A DNA stretch of 64,000 nt from Escherichia phage ECML-10, in sequence record OL631479.1; one strand, written 5' to 3'. Of this stretch, positions 3,138 through 44,640 are shown piece by piece (positions within the stretch are counted from its first letter, which is position 1; the number at the start of each line of letters is the position of its first letter). A model generated the notes under the pieces. The model ran no database searches. It was not told where the DNA came from and saw only the letters and a program-made list of their open reading frames with translations. The position numbers were made by a program, and so were the translations under genes.

Positions 3138-4127
3138 TTGACGATGATGGCAAAGTTAACTCTTGAGCAAATTTTAACACTAAAGCAGCAGGGATACACT
3201 AATAGACAAATTGCTCGTGAATTTTTAGGCCGTGAGTCACGTGAGAGTTGGATCCGACTACAGCTTAAACGTGCACAAGAGAATATGTCAGAGATTGTAG
3301 GAGAAGCAACGGAGCGCTTCCTTGAAGAACACAAAGGAGCTAAAGTTTGGGTGTATGATACAGAAACATCACCAACAAACGGCTGGTTCTTTGGGCACTA
3401 TAAGACCAACATTCAAACCTGCGGTATTGAAATTATGCCCTATATGCTAACTTTCGCAGGTAAGTGGTTAGACAGTCCTAGTGTGGTTGACTGCGCTCTT
3501 CCCGATTACAAAATGTGGGATGAGGATATTCACAATGACCTCGAATTGATTCAGGACTTGTGGTATTATCTGGATAAATGTGATGTCGCAGTAGCCCACA
3601 ATTCAGGTTTTGACTGTGGGTGGGCAAACCAACGATTTGCATTTCACGGGTTGCCTCCAACAAGCCCATACAAAGAGGTTGACACCCTTAAAATGATCAA
3701 GAAGGCATTCCGTTTGAATGCAAACACTTTGGAGTATGCATGCAAATACTTCCAACTTGCCAGACAGAAACTGATTGACCACACATTTGAAATGTGGATC
3801 AAGTGTGTTCATGGTGATCTTGAGGCGTTTAAACAGATGCGGGAGTACAATGTTGGTGATATCCTATCTCTGGAAGGCCTGTATTTGCTGGCACGCCCGT
3901 TTGCTAAGCAGCACCCCAACATGTCATTGTACTACCAGGATGAGGAGCCAAAAGTTCGTTGCCCACGCTGCGGTGGAGAACACCTTCACGAGGAAGAAGC
4001 TTTGGCGTATACTCAACTGAGTGCATTTAAAACATATCGCTGCGAAGGTTGTGGATCTGTTGTTCGTGACCGTAACAACATCCGTACCAGAGAAGAAATG
4101 AAAAACACCCTGATTCAGATAATCTAA
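3138..4127 (+). CDS. DnaQ-like 3'-5' exonuclease with N-terminal HTH-like segment and C-terminal CxxC zinc ribbon (putative)
   Basis: AAGGA RBS; exo-like motifs VYDTET, AVAHNSGFDCGW, YNVGD; C-terminal CPRCGG...CEGCG. Confidence 0.5.
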   Translation: MTMMAKLTLEQILTLKQQGYTNRQIAREFLGRESRESWIRLQLKRAQENMSEIVGEATERFLEEHKGAKVWVYDTETSPTNGWFFGHYKTNIQTCGIEIMPYMLTFAGKWLDSPSVVDCALPDYKMWDEDIHNDLELIQDLWYYLDKCDVAVAHNSGFDCGWANQRFAFHGLPPTSPYKEVDTLKMIKKAFRLNANTLEYACKYFQLARQKLIDHTFEMWIKCVHGDLEAFKQMREYNVGDILSLEGLYLLARPFAKQHPNMSLYYQDEEPKVRCPRCGGEHLHEEEALAYTQLSAFKTYRCEGCGSVVRDRNNIRTREEMKNTLIQII

Positions 4128-4136
4128 TCAAGTATA

Positions 4137-4165
4137 GGGAGGCTTGCGCCTCCCTTTTCCTTTTG
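4137..4165 (+). terminator. intrinsic terminator
   Basis: GGGAGGC-ttgc-GCCTCCC hairpin followed by TTTTCCTTTT. Confidence 0.6.
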
Positions 4166-4173
4166 GAGGCACT

Positions 4174-4992
4174 TTGAGCAAGAAAGAGTCCAACGACAAA
4201 TATTACACAAACCCTGAGTATGCAGAATATCTTGTTGGTAAAGTAAAAGATAAGTATGGAAATTGTGCATACGTTGAGCCTTCTGCTGGAAGGGGTTCTT
4301 TTTCAAAACTATTTTCAGAGATACTGTCTTACGATCTAGTACCAGATCCTGAATTTGAAGGACCAACACCGTGCATTCAGGCAAACTTCTTGGAGGTGCA
4401 TCCCAAGGCAGATGTCTTCATAGGTAACCCACCATTTGGCAAGAATTCATCTTTAGCTTGCAAATTCTTTAACCATTGTGCATCATTGCTAGAGCTTGGA
4501 GGGGCTATAGCCTTCATCTTGCCACGGACATTTGAAAAAATATTTTTTGCAAACAAACTGGACATGTCGATGCACCTTGTCTACAGTGAAAGGTGCCCTA
4601 AGAACTCGTTTCTACTTAATGGCAAACCTTATGACGTGCCGTGTGTTTTCCAAATTTGGGAGAAAAAGGCGTGCAACAGGGATCCTGTAGAGATTGGGGA
4701 GAATAAGTTATTTTCTTTTAGCACTCCAGATGACTACGACTTCTGTGTAAGACGTGTTGGGTATAATGCTGGAAAAGTATTGGGGGAGGATGACCCAAAA
4801 TCTGAAGAATCAACATATTTCATAAAATCTTTAGTTGACGGTGTTGACAGAGTGTTTGCTGAATGCTATTCTTCTTTTCAAGAAGAAGCAGGTAAGACTG
4901 CCGGAATGAAGAGTATAGGTAAGAAAGAACTACAATACATTTTGGAGACTAGGTATGATCAAAAGCATAGACTTGACCAAAGAACTTACTGA
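4174..4992 (+). CDS. DNA N6-adenine methyltransferase (putative)
   Basis: motifs DKYYTNP, EPSAGRGSF and NPPFG; start placed at in-frame TTG after the terminator, uncertain. Confidence 0.6.
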   Translation: MSKKESNDKYYTNPEYAEYLVGKVKDKYGNCAYVEPSAGRGSFSKLFSEILSYDLVPDPEFEGPTPCIQANFLEVHPKADVFIGNPPFGKNSSLACKFFNHCASLLELGGAIAFILPRTFEKIFFANKLDMSMHLVYSERCPKNSFLLNGKPYDVPCVFQIWEKKACNRDPVEIGENKLFSFSTPDDYDFCVRRVGYNAGKVLGEDDPKSEESTYFIKSLVDGVDRVFAECYSSFQEEAGKTAGMKSIGKKELQYILETRYDQKHRLDQRTY

Positions 4993-31240: not shown

Positions 31241-31540
31241 ATGTCTACAAAGACGGCTAAATACTCCTACATGCCATCAACCTCTGCAGAGGTAGATTTT
31301 AGTTTCGATGTGTTTCCACTGTTTGAGGTGGTTCTGGCATACCCAACAATACTATCTACTCCGGAATCACTTGTGCCTGTTAAGTTGCAGAACGCCATGC
31401 ATTCTATGCACTACAACAATAAATGCAGGCACAGATGGTGTCAGGACGAGGAAAAAGATCTGGATAGTTTGAGAGATTTTGACAGTCACCTTTTGACACC
31501 TTTCAGCTACTCCAACCTTGATAAGCCATCATGGGTATAG
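31241..31540 (+). CDS. hypothetical protein
   Basis: ATG after GAGGTGG. Confidence 0.4.
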   Translation: MSTKTAKYSYMPSTSAEVDFSFDVFPLFEVVLAYPTILSTPESLVPVKLQNAMHSMHYNNKCRHRWCQDEEKDLDSLRDFDSHLLTPFSYSNLDKPSWV

Positions 31541-31565
31541 CAAAATATCAAATTTAAGACACCTA

Positions 31566-31592
31566 GGACGCTCTGTGGCGTCCTTTTCTTTA
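31566..31592 (+). terminator. intrinsic terminator
   Basis: GGACGC-tctgtg-GCGTCC followed by TTTTCTTT. Confidence 0.7.
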
Positions 31593-31753
31593 TCTGGTGC
31601 ACGATTGCATACCTTGGACAGATAATCTCCTTACAGAGCGTTTAAGAGCTTCCTACAAACAACTCTCTTTTTCGAGCGTAGCGAGAACGCACGTCCGTTT
31701 TGACCCAAATCCCCATACGCTCGGATTTTAACCAAACCCTCGCGGCGTTTCTA

Positions 31754-31782
31754 TTGACACATTACCGCTCCAGTGATAGTAT
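31754..31782 (+). promoter_or_regulatory. sigma70-like promoter
   Basis: TTGACA-17 nt-TAGTAT. Confidence 0.5.
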
Positions 31783-31900
31783 CCACACATAGTTTGTAGA
31801 ATATGGAATACACAATGAGAACATTGTCCGAAGTTTTAGTAGTGATCCTGATGATCATTACGTCCATAGCGGCTGTTGCCGGAATACTCACGGGTGGAAC

Positions 31901-32113
31901 ATGATCAACACGCATGCACCTGAAGAGACATCCGAAGGAGTGACCATATGTCCATTGTCTGAGCCAGTGAAAGAGGAAAACTTCGATTCTGAAGATTCTC
32001 CATCTTCGCTCCAGGTAGATCCTGAGGCTGATGACCTAACGTGGGAAGACATCGTAGACATCTGGTTCTCCATTATGCCTGAGCACGAAGAGTTCAGAGG
32101 TGGTAGACTATGA
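31901..32113 (+). CDS. hypothetical acidic protein
   Basis: 70 aa ORF; a possible 29-aa hydrophobic peptide ORF lies just upstream (about 31816-31905). Confidence 0.35.
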   Translation: MINTHAPEETSEGVTICPLSEPVKEENFDSEDSPSSLQVDPEADDLTWEDIVDIWFSIMPEHEEFRGGRL

Positions 32114-32234
32114 AGCACCGAGCCCACACAGGTTCCTCATGCTAAAGCATGGCCTGAAGAGGCAAACGTGTATAATTCCAGTGCATTGGAACGTATAAAA
32201 CCCTGTTCACACTCTCATTTCCAGAGGAGATTTC

Positions 32235-32450
32235 ATGAAGATAGAAATATTTGGTGGAGCTGACAACACTCGTGGCCTGATTTACCTTGAATTCGATGAA
32301 ACATACCTGCCAGAGGTGTTAAATATAGACTCTGTTGCTGAGGCTTTGGGAGTAAACCCTAAAGAACTCCACTCTTGTGCTGAGATCGATGGTTGGGAAG
32401 AGACCATGAACATTGATTTCAGTGAAGTAGAGGATGAACCGCTGGACTGA
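32235..32450 (+). CDS. small acidic protein, paralog family member
   Basis: MKIEIFGG..., C-terminal EVEDEPLD; last plus-strand gene. Confidence 0.45.
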   Translation: MKIEIFGGADNTRGLIYLEFDETYLPEVLNIDSVAEALGVNPKELHSCAEIDGWEETMNIDFSEVEDEPLD

Positions 32451-32577
32451 CACACAATTAGCTGCCCGGCTAAAGTGCTGGAAGCACCTATAACACATCT
32501 TTCAACTAAATTTCCCACCACCACAATCACTTACCTCCCACACATGACTGTTTGCTTGTTTAGTGAGCAGTCATGCC

Positions 32578-32605
32578 TTGACATTCTTGCCTATCCTGAT
32601 AAAAT
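32578..32605 (+). promoter_or_regulatory. sigma70-like promoter facing into ORF-poor region
   Basis: TTGACA-16 nt-TAAAAT; no credible ORF downstream. Confidence 0.4.
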
Positions 32606-34030
32606 TAAGTTCTTCTCTTTTCTTTTACCGAGTAATTCGGGTTTTCTGTTCTCTTCGGTTTGAAGGGGTATGGAGATACACCTGAGTGAACAGGGTGAAC
32701 AACCGAACATTTGGCTATGGCATTAGCATGGCGAAGCGGACGGGTGACGAAAGAGGGGCCGGAGGACACCAGTCACTGCCATATGATATATGGGTGATAA
32801 CCTGAAGAGTCTGAATAAGTGTTTAAGTACCAGTCAGAGGAAAAGGTGAATGGTAGCCGAAGGGGGAGGGGGTTTCTTGTATCTTTAATTTGTATATTAT
32901 GTATACATTCGTAAACCAATCTCATCTGAATCTGTTTACCACACAAAGTGGATAGAGACAAATATTACCTATTAAACTTGAATTATTTATAGAAAATACT
33001 ACAACACTACTTAAGTATTTGATTTTACACACAAATCCTGCAGATATTCACCCCCCATATTTAACATACTTGTAACATATTCCATACTCTACCTGACCGA
33101 TCAACTCACCCAACTACATCCTCCATATTTCCCCTGTCTGTACTACCCCTGCCCAGCCGGGAGTCCCGTCATATCTGGCTTTCCAGCAAATATCACACCC
33201 ACAAATATCATTGCCTGAAGAGGGTTTCATCCCATAATACATGCCTTACCTGAAGAGCGCTTCATATACCCCGTAAATTTTTTAATTGACACCCTCCCCG
33301 CCGCCGGAGGGGGTTGGCTTTTCCCACACAGACCCGAAGAGCCAGCCAGAAATATCTGAACAGGTCCAGCTATGCCACGATTTTGACCTGACCTACAGGA
33401 GTGCTTCCCTGTCAGGAGCCGGTAGCGACTGGAGTGCTGCCAGGCGGACGAAATGGGAATACTTCTCATTCTTATAATAATTCTCAAATATCGAGGCAGT
33501 GAGGCAAATTAATAGGTGAGGCCGTTCACACAGTGGCACAACATTTGCAACCTATCTTGTGTGGGGGAATGAGAATACCTATCATTGTGAGAATAGTTAT
33601 CATTACGGGCAATTTAACATAATACCCATTATGCGCACCACTGGCGATCCATACAGGGATTGATAACATGAGTTACTGTTTATGCATATAACAATTATAT
33701 TTCTTACTATTTGTGTGGGATATAGTTAGCAGCCAATAGATTAGATATTGACCTGTAGACTTCTGACCGTCCAGACGTCTAAACGCCCACACAACAAGGC
33801 TTATACATACATCGCTGAATGTAAACAGGGCCGCAAAAATGCTACCATACCAGATTGTAAATTTTTCATACAGCACTTGACAAAGAGGAGAAAAACTTGT
33901 CTGACACTTTAGACACAATAGTGACATAATGGTGACACACTGGGCATACTCAACACACTGGATACAATAACAGTTGTTACTATTGCATGCTTCACTGTTC
34001 ACGTATAGATTGTTTACACAGAGATGATAA

Positions 34031-34311
34031 GCCATGCCATTCGTTTGCATGACAATAATTAACTTGTTTACAATCTTTCACTGGCTATGCCAGGTGACCT
34101 TTGGTCACCCCTTCGGGTGTTTCTATGACATAATATAAAAGCAGGGCAACTATTAGAAGATCTATAGTTGCCTTGCTTGTTATGTCACGATTAACTAAAT
34201 ACAAGGCAACTATGATCTGATTAATAGTTTGCAGACAAACTATCACGGGGGTGATGGTTACTGCTTTTATATTATGTCGCGACTCCGTCGCGCCATGCCA
34301 TTCGTTTGCAT
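34031..34311. repeat. composite palindrome/iteron locus bounded by 20-bp direct repeats
   Basis: direct repeats GCCATGCCATTCGTTTGCAT at 34031 and 34292; perfect 18-bp inverted repeat GACATAATATAAAAGCAG (34127) / CTGCTTTTATATTATGTC (34261); GGCAACTAT / ATAGTTGCC palindrome at 34145-34172 with more copies at 34205 and 34310; GGTGACC..GGTCACC at 34093. Confidence 0.7.
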
Positions 34312-34924
34312 AGTTGCCTTATTGTTACGAATAAAACAATTGCATTGTTAATGATTTCTTATCTTTCTCTTAGTCATCTAATGATTCCAGTCAGTATAGT
34401 AATGTACAGTAAACATTAGACGACTAAAGATTTCTCTGTTTATTATAACTCACCGTTATAATTTCGAGCTGTTTACGAAAAATGTTGACATCCTAGCCGA
34501 TTTATGTTATGCAGTTTACACGAATAATTATTTTATGCAGGTATTGACTATTCCGTTATTCTATGGTTGGAATAAATACTTAGCAGGCTATAGACTGGTG
34601 AGCGTACGTAAATTCTGAGATCTGGCGGCTATAGTTATACTCGATTTTTCACGTAGAACACGCTTTTGTGGTTATGTAAGTGCATGAATTATAAGAATTT
34701 TTATTTGTTGACAAGATATTGAAGATATGCATCAGGTTAAAATTTATGCAATAGCGGCATTACGTGCAATTTTGGAAGGAAAAGCGTGTAAAAATGGCCC
34801 TGCTACCACACAATGAAAGGTTATGCAATAGCTATTTTACATGTATATTTGTACAGTGTGTGGGATTGATGGCTCGTCAATTATTCCACTTGCCAGGTAG
34901 GGCCGTTTGTGGTAGGAAAAGAGA

Positions 34925-34951
34925 AGACAAAAAGAAAGGGGCTTTAAGCCC
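34925..34951 (-). terminator. intrinsic terminator for the leftward gene block
   Basis: minus-strand GGGGC-uuaaa-GCCCC followed by UUUCUUUUU. Confidence 0.65.
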
Positions 34952-34972
34952 CTGACCGTTCATCTTGTTGTA

Positions 34973-35236
34973 TTATTTGTTGCTCATCCAGTTTTCCCAA
35001 GCTGCCTGATAATCTGCCTCACTACGGCGGATCTCTTCTTGTTCTTCAAGTCGGATCTCTTCTTCCAGGTACCCCAAGATGTCAGCCTTTTTGGTCTGGC
35101 GTAGCATCCAGTCATCTTTTTTGCGGGTAAAGATCTTATAAGCTTTCTCGCAAACCTCTTTTTTGCTACCTTTCTGGACTTCCAGAACACGATAAGCCAT
35201 ATATTGAACTAGTTTGAGCTGGTCAAGACGTTTCAT
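34973..35236 (-). CDS. hypothetical protein
   Basis: AAAGAGGAAAAA RBS; 87 aa. Confidence 0.5.
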   Translation of the reverse strand: MKRLDQLKLVQYMAYRVLEVQKGSKKEVCEKAYKIFTRKKDDWMLRQTKKADILGYLEEEIRLEEQEEIRRSEADYQAAWENWMSNK

Positions 35237-35298
35237 GATGTTTTTCCTCTTTATGTGGTTTTTGTTCAGTGGGCCTTTTGGCCCGTGTCATTATCTTA

Positions 35299-35571
35299 TT
35301 ACTTACGGCGGCAGAATTCAAGCGTTTTTAATTGATAATCTTCCTCAGCCTGGAGTACAACCGCCTCGATCATTTCGTTGGCATTGTTGAAGCCATACCC
35401 TTTAGCGAACTCATCCGCACCACCTTCGTGATCATGTTCTGCGTTCATCGCTTCCACGAAATGGAATTCAAGATTATTGAGATAAGGGCTTGATGTTCCG
35501 TCCTCTTTTTCGATGAGATCCCAAATAGCATTAAAACGTGATTCGACTTCTTGATTAATCCAGCTTGACAT
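35299..35571 (-). CDS. hypothetical acidic protein
   Basis: AGAGAGGAAAA RBS; 90 aa. Confidence 0.5.
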   Translation of the reverse strand: MSSWINQEVESRFNAIWDLIEKEDGTSSPYLNNLEFHFVEAMNAEHDHEGGADEFAKGYGFNNANEMIEAVVLQAEEDYQLKTLEFCRRK

Positions 35572-35782
35572 AATGTTTTCCTCTCTTCTGGTTGTTGTGT
35601 GGGCACTTTTGCCCCTTCAAGATAAATGTTACCCCACCACCTGGCAGATGTCAACGGTTTTTATAGTTCTTATATGACAGGCAGGCCCGGTGATTGTCTC
35701 CCCCCGTCGCCAGGTGCCTGCCGTGTAATAAGTATAACAAAAAACAGGACCATTGCAAGCCCTGTTTTCTAGTTAATAAGGA

Positions 35783-35974
35783 TTATATTTTTTCGCCTAT
35801 GTAGTCCGGTCGGTTTTTCTCTGTCATGCGCTTTAGCAATTCTTGCATGTTACTTATGGCTTGTAGTGTATCCTCTTCCAGACTTGAATCAACATAATCA
35901 GGATCGTCTATGACCTTTCTATGATTATGATAACGCAGTACCGCCAATACCTTTCTAACTTGTTCAACATTCAT
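35783..35974 (-). CDS. hypothetical protein
   Basis: 63 aa ORF; weak RBS. Confidence 0.35.
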   Translation of the reverse strand: MNVEQVRKVLAVLRYHNHRKVIDDPDYVDSSLEEDTLQAISNMQELLKRMTEKNRPDYIGEKI

Positions 35975-36123
35975 TTTTATCGCTCTTTAAAACAAGGTGC
36001 CAACCGTTTCTAGTAGATCACTGACCACCAGGACAATACTGATCAGCACATATCTAACCATAAGGGGAAAGAGCGCCAGCGATCCCGCCACAATCCCCAA
36101 GGTAATGATTATCTTTTTCACGG

Positions 36124-43497: not shown

Positions 43498-43657
43498 TCA
43501 ACCATTAGTTAAAATTATTTTTGCCCCTGCCAGGTTAACCATCATTTTTTCGTACTCTTCTTTATGTTCCAACGCTCCCGCCATAGCCTTTTCAACCAGG
43601 GCGATAGCCTCAGCGTCATTAATAGCTACATTTTCCAGGGGGATTATATTACCTTTC
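43498..43657 (-). CDS. hypothetical small protein (53 aa)
   Basis: ATG after GGAGGTACAAAA; not in the 60-aa ORF track. Confidence 0.4.
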
Positions 43658-43818
43658 ATTTTTGTACCTCCCCTTCAATTGTTACCTATCCTATAGCATA
43701 GGCCCACCAGGTTTACAAGCCTTCATTCTCTCCTGCCTGGTCAGTTAGGTCCTGCCAGGCTGGCCCCGCCAGGTTGCAGCGGTTAGCGCATCAGGTTAGA
43801 AAAATTTTTTGAAAAGTG

Positions 43819-43950
43819 TTGACAGCGGCCCCGCCAGGTGGCACAATATACCTATCGAAAGGACGGCAGGCACCGGTGACGGGGGAGACAACCACCGGGG
43901 ATGGGCGCTGCATAAAATGAGAACGGTTATCATTATCATTTAAAAATTTA
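43819..43950 (+). ncRNA. candidate small RNA unit 1 (promoter plus ~90-nt structured transcript)
   Basis: AT-rich UP-like tract, TTGACA-17 nt-CACAAT, then CCGGUG stem with loop containing GGGAGACAAC, ending GAGAACGGTTATCATTATCATTT; no ORF. Confidence 0.35.
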
Positions 43951-43961
43951 TGCAAAAAATC

Positions 43962-44075
43962 CTTGCTTTCTTTGTCCTGTGTGATACTATAATAACAAGC
44001 CGGGGCAACAGGGGCCGGGAGACAATCACCGGGCCTGCCCGTTATTCTGCAAACGAGAATGATTATCATTCAAAA
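43962..44075 (+). ncRNA. candidate small RNA unit 2 (paralog of unit 1)
   Basis: TATAAT at 43988, then GGGAGACAATCACCGGG and GAGAATGATTATCATT, homologous to unit 1. Confidence 0.35.
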
Positions 44076-44179
44076 TTCTAAATGAGAACTCCTCGCATTT
44101 AATAAATTTAATTAGCATGCTAATTACCCTCCGTAACAATTTCCTATAAAACAGTATCCCATAAAATATTCCCATATAG

Positions 44180-44640
44180 AAATTTTAAAAATCCATTTCT
44201 GAAAACGAAAAATCGATTTCGTCCCCAAAAATTTCAGGTCGAGATCCGGAACGATTTCCAGAAAATCCGATTCAGAAAACGAAAAACAGATCGAGTACTG
44301 AGAAATTTATCGAGAAAAATTTTCAGAAAATCCAAGCCATGAAATGAAAAGTAGATCGAGTACTTGGAAAGCTGCACCGCAACTTCAAGATAGTGGTTAG
44401 ATTGTTACCATAGAAGGTTAAGGGCAAGTGGAGGAAGTTCTAGTAGAGGGAGGTTAGCATGTGTGGGAAATCTATAATGGTGGCCTGGAATATGGTGCAA
44501 ACGATAGGATGAGTTATTCAGCTTGTCGCGCCTACTCTGAAAAATCCATTTTAGTTTTCGATCCATTTTCTGATTTTCTAAGAATTTTAAAATATCCAGC
44601 CCGGTGAAATATCAAAAGGAGGAAATCCATTTTAGAAATC
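44180..44640. repeat. iteron-like degenerate direct-repeat region
   Basis: repeated CAGAAAATCC(R)ATT, GAAAACGAAAAA and AGATCGAGTACT motifs in an AT-rich ORF-free stretch. Confidence 0.6.

Follow-up and report, generated by a model that had tools for sequence, protein, structure and literature searches.

Predicted chromosome ends, a dif-like site and a candidate non-coding RNA in the gene-free gap of Escherichia phage ECML-10

We analyzed a 64,000-nucleotide stretch of the genome of Escherichia phage ECML-10 (OL631479.1; hereafter, the window), in which positions 32451–34972 carry no conserved open reading frame (ORF). Comparison with related genomes indicates that this gap is the junction of the two ends of a linear chromosome, with a 459-bp direct terminal repeat (DTR) collapsed to one copy in the assembly. 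The repeat contains a site with the arms of Escherichia coli dif that most likely binds the host's XerC and XerD recombinases, and a promoter on the right-end side is followed by an almost invariant 262-nt unit that may be transcribed into a non-coding RNA. The explanation as a whole, that is, joined ends with a DTR, use of the dif-like site by Xer, and an RNA made from the promoter at 32578, seems to us reasonably probable.

Chromosome ends and the terminal repeat

The gap is homologous over its whole length to ∼120 records of Vequintavirus (rV5-like coliphages), the genus of the phage studied here, with 89–95% identity. In the rV5 paper, the homologous gap is boxed as “non-coding”, a label that dates from 2013, the genome is treated as circularly permuted, and the bidirectional terminators to be expected between genes 163 and 164 were missing, no intrinsic terminator having been found at that place (PMC3606486). 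The ORF-free gap is a known yet unexplained feature of Vequintavirus.

The database records themselves locate the ends. Phage Gotham (MT682716) has an annotated 459-bp repeat_region at both ends of the record, bases 1–459 being the same as 136567–137025, and both copies align to positions 33443–33901 of the window. The records of EdH4, bov11CS3, bov25_3, ECP2309, YN3, and two more bov phages start exactly at the homologue of 33443, and those of Gotham, ECP2303, and EcoIv14a_Aya end exactly at the homologue of 33901, so that at least nine independent records from different laboratories begin at the former position or end at the latter. In ECP2309, YN3, and EdH4, the repeat is found at two places in the record, and terminal redundancies of 458 bp have been reported for EdH4 and HdK5 (Korf 2019). 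In Shigella phage CM1 (L011, MK962749.1, 2532–3513), the repeat occurs twice, 64 nt apart, and the second copy restarts precisely at the homologue of 33443, which we read as the signature of a pile-up of read ends.

The same boundaries are found in another genus. Klebsiella phage KPP-1 (Mydovirus) has a T7-type DTR of 514 bp at 116316–116829, mapped with PhageTerm (PMC9862379), and this repeat likewise lies in a convergent, nearly ORF-free gap. Its left edge, GACGGACAG, is homologous to the left edge in the window, GGCGGACGA, and its right edge, TTGTAAATTT...CTTGACAAGGAGAGAGAATTGTGT, is homologous to TTGTAAATTT...CTTGACAAAGAGGAGAAAAACTTGTC in the window. Given this homology, two independent determinations of the termini, in two genera, converge on the same motifs. 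Within the repeat, identity among the relatives is 92–98% by 50-nt blocks, and hypervariable sequence sets in exactly outside both edges. Hence, for the close relatives the same sequence is present at both ends, and the termini are fixed and non-permuted, as in T7-type DTRs.

In the layout suggested by these comparisons, ∼1 kb of right-end non-coding DNA (32451–33442) is joined through the DTR to ∼1.07 kb of left-end non-coding DNA (33902–34972). Virions would carry the 459-bp repeat at both ends, the terminase would cut concatemers at both repeat edges (33443 and 33901) in the manner of T7, and the variable short-repeat arrays outside the edges would be accessory DNA like the T7 arrays SRL and SRR. 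The apparent convergence of the genes around the gap arises because the genes at both chromosome ends read outward. The initial annotation had described the region as convergent and had missed that this layout is an artefact of joining the two ends. It had also supposed that this much non-coding DNA in a gene-dense phage points to non-coding RNAs or to a cis-acting function in replication or packaging. As regards a packaging terminus, this agrees with the chromosome ends and the 459-bp repeat found in the gap, while a replication origin has little support (see below).

The arrangement shares with T7 and KPP-1 an exact repeat of a few hundred base pairs at both ends, fixed termini, and a location in non-coding DNA. 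T7 has its SRL and SRR short-repeat arrays at the terminal repeat, and the arrays that flank each edge of the repeat in the window may be their analogues. A further likeness is that the promoter on the right-end side is directed at the junction, as is phiOR in T7, where pausing of RNA polymerase at the junction starts maturation (PMC3276506). By contrast with T7, the phage studied here is a 137-kb myovirus relying on the host RNA polymerase, its genes on both sides read toward the ends, its repeat holds a dif-like site that T7 lacks, and its termini are placed from those of relatives.

The identity of the chromosome ends is recoverable from the GenBank records and one sentence of Korf (2019), though the rV5 paper assumed a permuted genome. 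Placing the ends provides a natural zero point for genomes whose records mostly start at arbitrary positions, and accounts for both the apparent convergent layout and the missing terminators. The rV5-like phages are widely isolated and are used against pathogenic E. coli, Salmonella, Klebsiella, and Cronobacter.

The gap is indeed poor in ORFs, as had been claimed from the sequence initially. Among 15 aligned relatives, gap ORFs of at least 60 amino acids are intact in just one or two, while both flanking genes, 32235–32450 on the plus strand and 34973–35236 on the minus strand, are intact in all 15. The exception is the ORF at 32475–32663 (62 amino acids; intact in 12 of the 15), which lies almost wholly within near-invariant DNA, where the intactness of a short ORF is uninformative on coding. 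Ten translations of gap ORFs gave zero family matches in Pfam and PHROG, and thus neither conservation of a reading frame nor a family match indicates a protein-coding gene in the gap. No tRNA or tmRNA genes are present, and Rfam scans of 31500–36000, of the invariant block, and of 43600–44500 yielded nothing above chance.

At the same time, the gap is neither uniformly conserved nor a remnant, as seen in a MAFFT alignment of the window with 14 relatives. Identity in 32451–32874 is 97–100%, exceeding that of the flanking genes (82–99%), and this block, the terminal repeat, and 34150–34650 are all conserved at least as well as the flanking genes. The comparison with related phages that had been recommended initially thus revealed conserved blocks beside hypervariable arrays.

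Two peculiarities of the records should be mentioned. The double repeat of CM1 is an assembly artefact at the physical ends that inflates the genome length by ∼520 bp. In addition, 19 of the ∼120 homologous records are entitled “UNVERIFIED Campylobacter phage” (MG0656xx; C2, D1, A141, and others) and are ∼90–95% identical to the coliphage region; these are probably due to contamination or mislabelling.

A dif-like site within the repeat

The dif site of E. coli has the sequence GGTGCGCATAA-TGTATA-TTATGTTAAAT, in full GGTGCGCATAATGTATATTATGTTAAAT (PMC3025954). The site in the repeat has both 11-bp arms identical to those of dif, whereas its 6-bp centre, TGGGTA, matches at four of six positions, the outer TG..TA being in agreement. 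No other such site is found in the window with up to three mismatches, and 0 are expected by chance.

The site is conserved well beyond the genus, across the Vequintavirinae. The 27-nt box 33612–33638 is the sole stretch that can still be aligned to A73/A5-4 and KPP-1, the other genera tested; the same stretch has a weak match in E. coli UTI89, beside a filamentous prophage, which is the genuine chromosomal dif. An exact-pattern scan of IMG/VR found the site in 21 contigs of 22–262 kb, most of them 120–153 kb, and in some of these it likewise lies in a convergent ORF-poor gap. Overall, it is present in at least five other genera; A73/A5-4, KPP-1, and the IMG/VR loci all have it. Among at least 40 copies, the XerD arm is 11/11 in all and the XerC arm 9–11/11, although the flanks of several genera are unalignable. 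All Vequintavirus copies examined have perfect arms and the centre TGGGTA (TAGGTA in rV5). In other genera, the XerC arm reads (A/G)GTGCG(C/T)ATAA and the centre is CGTGTT, CGTGTA, GGTGTA, or GTTGTA, but never the TGTATA of the host. The position is also preserved: wherever the left-terminus motif was found, the site lies 169–215 nt from it in the same orientation. In other genera, this motif is G(A/G)CGGAC, 203–215 nt upstream of the dif-like site, and the PhageTerm terminus of KPP-1 falls on it.

The arms of Xer sites determine the binding of XerC and XerD, and identical centres are required for complete exchange. With arms that match at a spacing within 6–8 bp and are conserved despite diverging flanks, the site most likely binds host XerC/XerD. 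As it is located within the terminal repeat, the DNA of every virion contains it twice, in direct orientation. Host XerCD could recombine the two, producing a circle with one repeat and a 459-bp fragment, and recombination between genomes would create the head-to-tail single-repeat junction that packaging needs; the non-host centre would prevent crossover with the chromosomal dif. In this way, XerC/XerD could circularise or concatenate the genome, much as Cre/loxP acts for P1.

In P1, Cre/loxP in the terminal redundancy circularises injected DNA without RecA; this cyclisation of terminally redundant DNA was reportedly described by Sternberg and colleagues in the 1980s. Both phages thus have a site-specific recombination site inside the terminal redundancy. 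However, the recombinase of P1 is phage-encoded and the P1 redundancy is long and permuted, while here the recombinase would be that of the host and the repeat is short and exact.

The site also resembles dif, cer, and psi in its 28-bp, 11-6-11 organization with arms identical to those of dif, and direct-repeat copies on one molecule suit a deletion or resolution reaction. It differs from dif in the centre and in residing on a lytic phage, inside a terminal repeat; moreover, no ArgR, ArcA, or PepA accessory sequences were identified for the site in the window. Phage DNA with a dif-like site used by host XerCD is known for the integrative elements CTX-phi, VGJ-phi, and TLC-phi, which exploit Xer (PMC3025954; see also PMC6744903, PMC9226527). 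These, however, are of small size, either filamentous or satellites, and insert themselves at dif, often with degenerate arms, whereas the phage studied here is virulent, with perfect arms, a heterologous centre, and no integrated copies among 5426 complete E. coli genomes. The top-ranked literature matches contained no link between Vequintavirinae and Xer or dif, and neither the dif mimic in the repeat nor the invariant promoter-driven unit appears to have been described previously.

Sites of this type were also observed in an unrelated phage (L041, IMGVR_UViG_3300007609_000041, 3170–4480; also L027), whose 1.3-kb non-coding region holds two dif-like sites, one being GGTGCGCATAA-TGTGTA-TTATGTTAAAT and the other degenerate, as well as an inverted partial copy. 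Each has pairs of perfect DnaA boxes (TTATCCACA) at its flanks.

The invariant 262-nt unit and competing explanations

The promoter-like TTGACA-16-TAAAAT at 32578, initially listed as having no gene downstream, proved to be genuine by comparative analysis. In the most divergent alignable relative (L030/L046; 82% identity overall), the −35 hexamer and TGATAAAAT are unchanged, while in L030 the spacer has been rewritten, with 18 instead of 16 nt, and the sequence around the start site is altered. The hexamers are therefore conserved independently of the spacer, at distances of 16–18 nt. Past the promoter, the segment 32612–32874 differs in L030/L046 at just a handful of positions; its identity to L046 is 98.8%, the highest of any 260-nt stretch in 11.1 kb, and it is ∼100% identical in 14 relatives. 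The similarity to phage Mangalyan breaks off abruptly at 32874, following GAAGGGGGAGGGGG(G)TT. The kept hexamers and the invariant unit fit a real promoter that drives a unit constrained at the nucleotide level, and near-invariance would leave little room for the synonymous variation expected of protein-coding DNA at this divergence.

The plus strand of the unit has a predicted fold of −83.8 kcal/mol (z −1.55), compared to −52.1 kcal/mol (z −0.18) for the minus strand. In the plus-strand fold, the pyrimidine-rich 5′ end is paired with the 3′ end, which is rich in G and precedes a U-rich tract. Of 13 variable positions in 22 sequences, eight are unpaired, three are compatible with pairing through wobble, and two break pairs. 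Homologues are confined to the genus: the best Rfam match of the block has E = 1.8, nhmmer searches of KPP-1, A73, and A5-4 with five sub-segments left the block without a significant homologue, a promoter scan of A73 revealed no counterpart, and neither a paralogue in the window nor similarity to E. coli DNA was seen for the block. A scan of metagenomes with a 22-mer from the block retrieved five contigs only, all of them vequintaviruses, with too little variation for covariation analysis. No vequintavirus transcriptome was found in the literature search.

The promoter at 32578 would thus make a non-coding RNA of ∼262 nt directed toward the chromosome end, a reading of the unit that deserves serious attention without being the more probable one. 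The unit might also act in cis, with transcription toward the junction as at T7 phiOR. As candidates for new phage RNAs go, the invariant unit is a clean one. The non-coding RNAs initially suggested for the gap are plausible solely for this promoter-driven segment, and even here there is no Rfam family and there are no compensatory base-pair changes.

The gap might instead be mainly a locus of non-coding RNA, with the structured ∼262-nt product of the promoter as its main function and with other parts possibly encoding RNAs as well. This is a respectable alternative, to which we give somewhat less than even weight: the hexamers are kept although the spacer varies freely, no other 260 nt of the 11 kb are as conserved as the transcribed block (98.8% against 82% overall), the plus strand folds far better than the minus strand, and eight of the 13 variable positions are unpaired, with three more keeping the pairing through wobble. 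Still, such a locus accounts for 262 of the 2522 bases and leaves the terminal repeat, the dif-like site, and the arrays unexplained. The palindromic module to the right of the repeat folds equally on both strands and is absent in phage FV3, no homologue of the unit was found in other genera, and neither an Rfam family nor compensatory double changes are available, with a z-score of only −1.55. The same promoter could serve a replication origin, its G-rich RNA priming synthesis via an R-loop as in ColE1, T7, and mitochondrial DNA, next to iteron-like arrays and AT-rich DNA. The variable TGACAY and TGTTYAC arrays, the 34–38% GC content of 34200–34800, the transcript end with G5AG5 followed by AT-rich DNA, and the DnaA boxes that flank the dif-like sites of the unrelated phage L041 are in line with this. 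We nevertheless consider an origin unlikely, as the region has a single relaxed DnaA box and no enrichment, the copy number in the arrays varies freely, FV3 lacks the whole palindromic module, and the invariant block is genus-specific. The cumulative GC skew has its maximum here, as at a convergence point and not as at an origin, and is confounded by the direction of transcription, as the rV5 authors also say (PMC3606486). The combination typical of DnaA- or iteron-dependent origins, namely boxes or fixed iterons with an AT-rich element and a skew minimum, was not found in the gap.

A different role for the dif-like site would be integration, the phage exploiting Xer like CTX-phi and persisting as a prophage or in a carrier state at the host dif. 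The arms identical to host dif, the agreement of the outer centre bases TG..TA, and the use of this route by filamentous phages (PMC3025954) would be expected in this case. However, in none of 5426 complete E. coli genomes was more than 2% of the 2.5-kb region found, so that there is no vequintavirus prophage and no integrated copy at dif among them; the centre differs from that of dif in every genus, and these phages are described as strictly lytic. All this makes integration very improbable. Finally, the gap could contain unannotated small protein genes or decaying, functionless DNA, given that some records annotate small ORFs here and that two sub-segments are hypervariable. We give this hardly any credence: all ORFs of at least 60 amino acids except 32475–32663 are broken in 13–14 of the 15 relatives, family matches are absent, the blocks 32451–32874, the terminal repeat, and 34150–34650 equal or exceed the flanking genes in conservation, and some motifs are conserved between genera.

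Several considerations weigh against the explanation that we prefer, joined ends with Xer recombination and an RNA from the promoter. The termini of this particular isolate are deduced from those of its relatives. Homologous recombination or single-strand annealing could join the 459-bp repeat, in which case Xer may be redundant, and phages of the T7 type need no circles. At dif, XerD normally depends on FtsK at the septum, and no phage-encoded activator was found in a search that covered the 87-residue neighbour fully and four other flanking ORFs by Pfam only. The FtsK-orienting polar sequence (KOPS) GGGNAGGG occurs 11 times in the window, compared to 4.6 expected; on the left, seven of nine copies point at the dif-like site, and on the right, none of two, so that they are polar on the left side alone. 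For the RNA, there are no compensatory double changes in 22 sequences with 13 variable positions, the z-score is just −1.55, and there is no proven terminator.

The most far-reaching form of the preferred explanation, in which Vequintavirinae use a dif mimic via host XerC/XerD and the invariant 262-nt unit encodes a new genus-restricted non-coding RNA for DNA maturation or host takeover, is put forward tentatively, as a hypothesis more likely to fail than to hold in full. If true, the use of Xer would be the first in a large lytic phage, and a counterpart of Cre/loxP in P1 that lacks a recombinase of its own. A lytic phage would then depend on, or exploit, the resolution of bacterial chromosome dimers, a new host dependency with possible consequences for resistance, host range, and the engineering of phages, e.g., in vivo circularisation of rebooted genomes.

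Other features of the gap and its neighbours

The motifs listed in the initial annotation are all present, with coordinates correct to within a few bases. They are collected in Table 1 together with the features found here.

Table 1. Features of the gap and their positions in the window; termini are those suggested by relatives
Feature	Position	Strand	Remarks
Gap without conserved ORF	32451..34972		Between the last plus-strand gene (32235–32450) and the last minus-strand gene (34973–35236)
8-bp inverted repeat CATGACTG-N17-CAGTCATG	32543..32575	+	Ends 2 bp before −35; nearly invariant in 22 sequences
Sigma-70 promoter TTGACA-16-(TG)ATAAAAT	32578..32605	+	11/12 match, extended −10; best site in 31500–36000
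Invariant 262-nt unit, candidate non-coding RNA	32612..32874	+	Pyrimidine-rich 5′ end; 3′ end GAAGGGGGAGGGGG, then T-rich tract
CCYGAAGAG boxes	32801, 33214, 33249, 33333 (within 32801..33341)	+	Two more upstream: 31919, 32153
C-rich, G-poor tract	33040..33340	+	Over 33000–33399: ∼32% C, 15% G, GC skew −0.37
Hypervariable short hairpin-type repeats (CWGG-AGYGCTK-CCWG)	33351..33430		Copy number varies via insertions and deletions
Left-terminus motif GGAGYGCTGCCA/GGCGGACGRAATGGGAAT (slash, terminus)	33431..33460		Left chromosome end at G33443; conserved in all relatives
Direct terminal repeat (459 bp)	33443..33901		Single collapsed copy in this assembly
Two tandem operator-like boxes (AATGAGAA-N3-YTATCATT)	33571..33604	+	Separated by 7 bp from the dif-like site's XerD arm
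dif-like XerC/XerD site GGTGCGCATAA-TGGGTA-TTATGTTAAAT	33612..33639	-	28 bp, 11-6-11; arms 22/22 identical to dif
Right-terminus motif TTGTAAATTT-N11-CTTGACAAAGAGGAGAAAAACTTGTC/ (slash, terminus)	33855..33901		Homologous to the end of the mapped KPP-1 DTR
TGACAY array, period 10–11 nt	33902..33938	+	Starts at the first base after the DTR; 2–6 copies among relatives
ACTGTTYACR array, period ∼15 nt	33994..34019	+	2 copies in the window, ∼7 in rV5
Module bounded by 20-bp direct repeats GCCATGCCATTCGTTTGCAT	34031..34311		Repeats at 34031–34050 and 34292–34311
Three-hairpin piece (52 nt)	34075..34126	+	Variably present among vequintaviruses
AT-rich conserved non-coding segment	34312..34936		34–38% GC; 81–99% conserved; TTATGCA repeats and TTGACAAGAT boxes
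Intrinsic terminator of the leftward operon, AGGGGCTTAAAGCCCCT then T tract	34937..34953	-	Terminator annotated in EdH4, Gotham, and Alma

Around the promoter, the inverted repeat upstream of −35 may serve as operator or hairpin. For CUGAAGAG, a resemblance to a hammerhead was considered and dismissed, as the core is not continued and Rfam has no match for it. At the start of the unit, the 12-nt tract TCTTCTCTTTTC (32611–32622) has a perfect inverted copy at 34916–34927, shortly past the leftward terminator. With ∼0.8 and ∼1.0 kb between the tracts and the respective edges of the repeat, the arrangement is roughly symmetric, which may be due to chance in low-complexity sequence. The G-run at the 3′ end of the unit includes a KOPS, GGGGAGGG at 32863–32870, oriented toward the dif-like site 740 nt downstream, and A73 has two overlapping KOPS copies (GGGGGAGGGGGAGGGGG) on the equivalent side of its putative repeat edge.

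To the left of the repeat, the three CCTGAAGAG copies reported initially are all present, at 32801, 33214, and 33249, the first two having been placed a few bases off (32806 and 33216); exact copies are also found at 31919 and 32153, and CCCGAAGAG at 33333. The common form, CCYGAAGAG, occurs nine times in the window, compared to 0.72 expected, eight times on the plus strand and six times between 31919 and 33341. The boxes are kept in relatives with variation at the Y position only, and phage A73 has similar CC-N-AGAG repeats to the left of its repeat. The composition of the C-rich tract suggests a terminator resembling Rho-utilisation sites, which would stop rightward transcripts before the chromosome end. 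The hairpin at 33292–33311 is not kept in most relatives and hence is unreliable as a terminator. The hypervariable stretch 33351–33430 (identity 0.73–0.81, gaps 7–15%) ends ∼12 nt before the left terminus. At the other edge of the repeat, the right-terminus motif doubles as a minus-strand promoter-like site, TTGTCA-18-TACAAT (33883–33854).

The two GAGAATnnnTATCATT boxes noted initially were confirmed at 33571–33586 and 33589–33604; what had been overlooked is that they lie within the terminal repeat, 7 bp from the dif-like site, and that the GACAC repeats start at the right edge of the repeat. With up to one mismatch, GAGAATnnnTATCATT is found four times in the window, compared to 0.19 expected, the other two copies being at 43919 and 44055, and the same type of palindrome occurs in the end region of KPP-1. 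An identification as Fur boxes was rejected, as just 12–13 of 19 consensus positions match and the spacing of half-sites is different. In four contigs of 149–153 kb (L031, L035, L038, L043), a near-consensus Fur box, GATAATGATAATCATT or AATGATAATCATT, is located 3–5 nt from the XerC arm, its counterpart in the window being the related AATGAGAA-N3-TTATCATT boxes 7 nt from the XerD arm. The Fur-like and operator-like boxes may be sites of accessory proteins for the Xer reaction.

To the right of the repeat, the closely spaced GACAC and GACAT repeats form a real cluster, which in relatives is an array of variable copy number. Its units in the window are TGACAC at 33902, GACAC at 33913, TGACAT at 33922, and TGACAC at 33933; over the whole window, TGACAY is not enriched (72 copies compared to 81 expected), and the clustering is local. 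In the hypervariable segment 33902–34150, the TGACAY and ACTGTTYACR units vary from 2 to ∼8 copies. The module that follows holds a large nested palindrome (34127–34278) with GGCAACTAT boxes and z-scores of −10.6 and −10.0 on the two strands; such equal folding implies a palindrome at the DNA level. KPP-1 and A73 have counterparts of this module, and it is dispensable, as the viable phage FV3 lacks all of it (34051–34291). The TTGACAAGAT box of the AT-rich segment is common to KPP-1 and A5-4.

The three-hairpin piece 34075–34126 is 90% identical to a non-coding stretch of circular E. coli plasmids of 13.3–13.7 kb (e.g., pE275a_13; NZ_CP035869.1, 10646–10697; L019/L020). These plasmids encode major capsid, tape measure, baseplate, and helix-turn-helix proteins, have a 2.2-kb gene-free region of their own, and look like phage satellites.

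Between the non-coding region and the gene for the 87-residue protein (34973–35236, minus strand), rV5 and many relatives have an additional gene of 139 amino acids, ORF164 (L002, 5605–6024), which is absent from the window (34954–34972) and from EdH4, Gotham, nimi, and FV3. The 87-residue protein was considered as a candidate FtsK-gamma and rejected, having no FtsK_gamma or DUF3653 match in Pfam and no fold match. Its AlphaFold model is all helical, with a predicted local distance difference test score of 67, and nothing in the PDB matches it. In the records of APCEc02 and of Danish wastewater phages, this gene is labelled “DNA translocase FtsK”, which receives no support from Pfam and the fold search. 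Homologues are found in Septuagintavirus (67–70% identity) and in some Salmonella siphoviruses (42%).

The other two operator-like boxes, GAGAACGGTTATCATT at 43919 and GAGAATGATTATCATT at 44055, belong to a second ORF-poor stretch of the window, 43700–44400. It has a sigma-70 promoter at 43819–43847, a TG-extended TATAAT near 43975–43991, transcribed segments that are G/C-rich and prone to form hairpins, and a TTTATGCAAAA motif like those at 34740–34830. This stretch might be a hub of regulation or a locus of small RNAs, with a DNA-binding protein in common with the terminal repeat.

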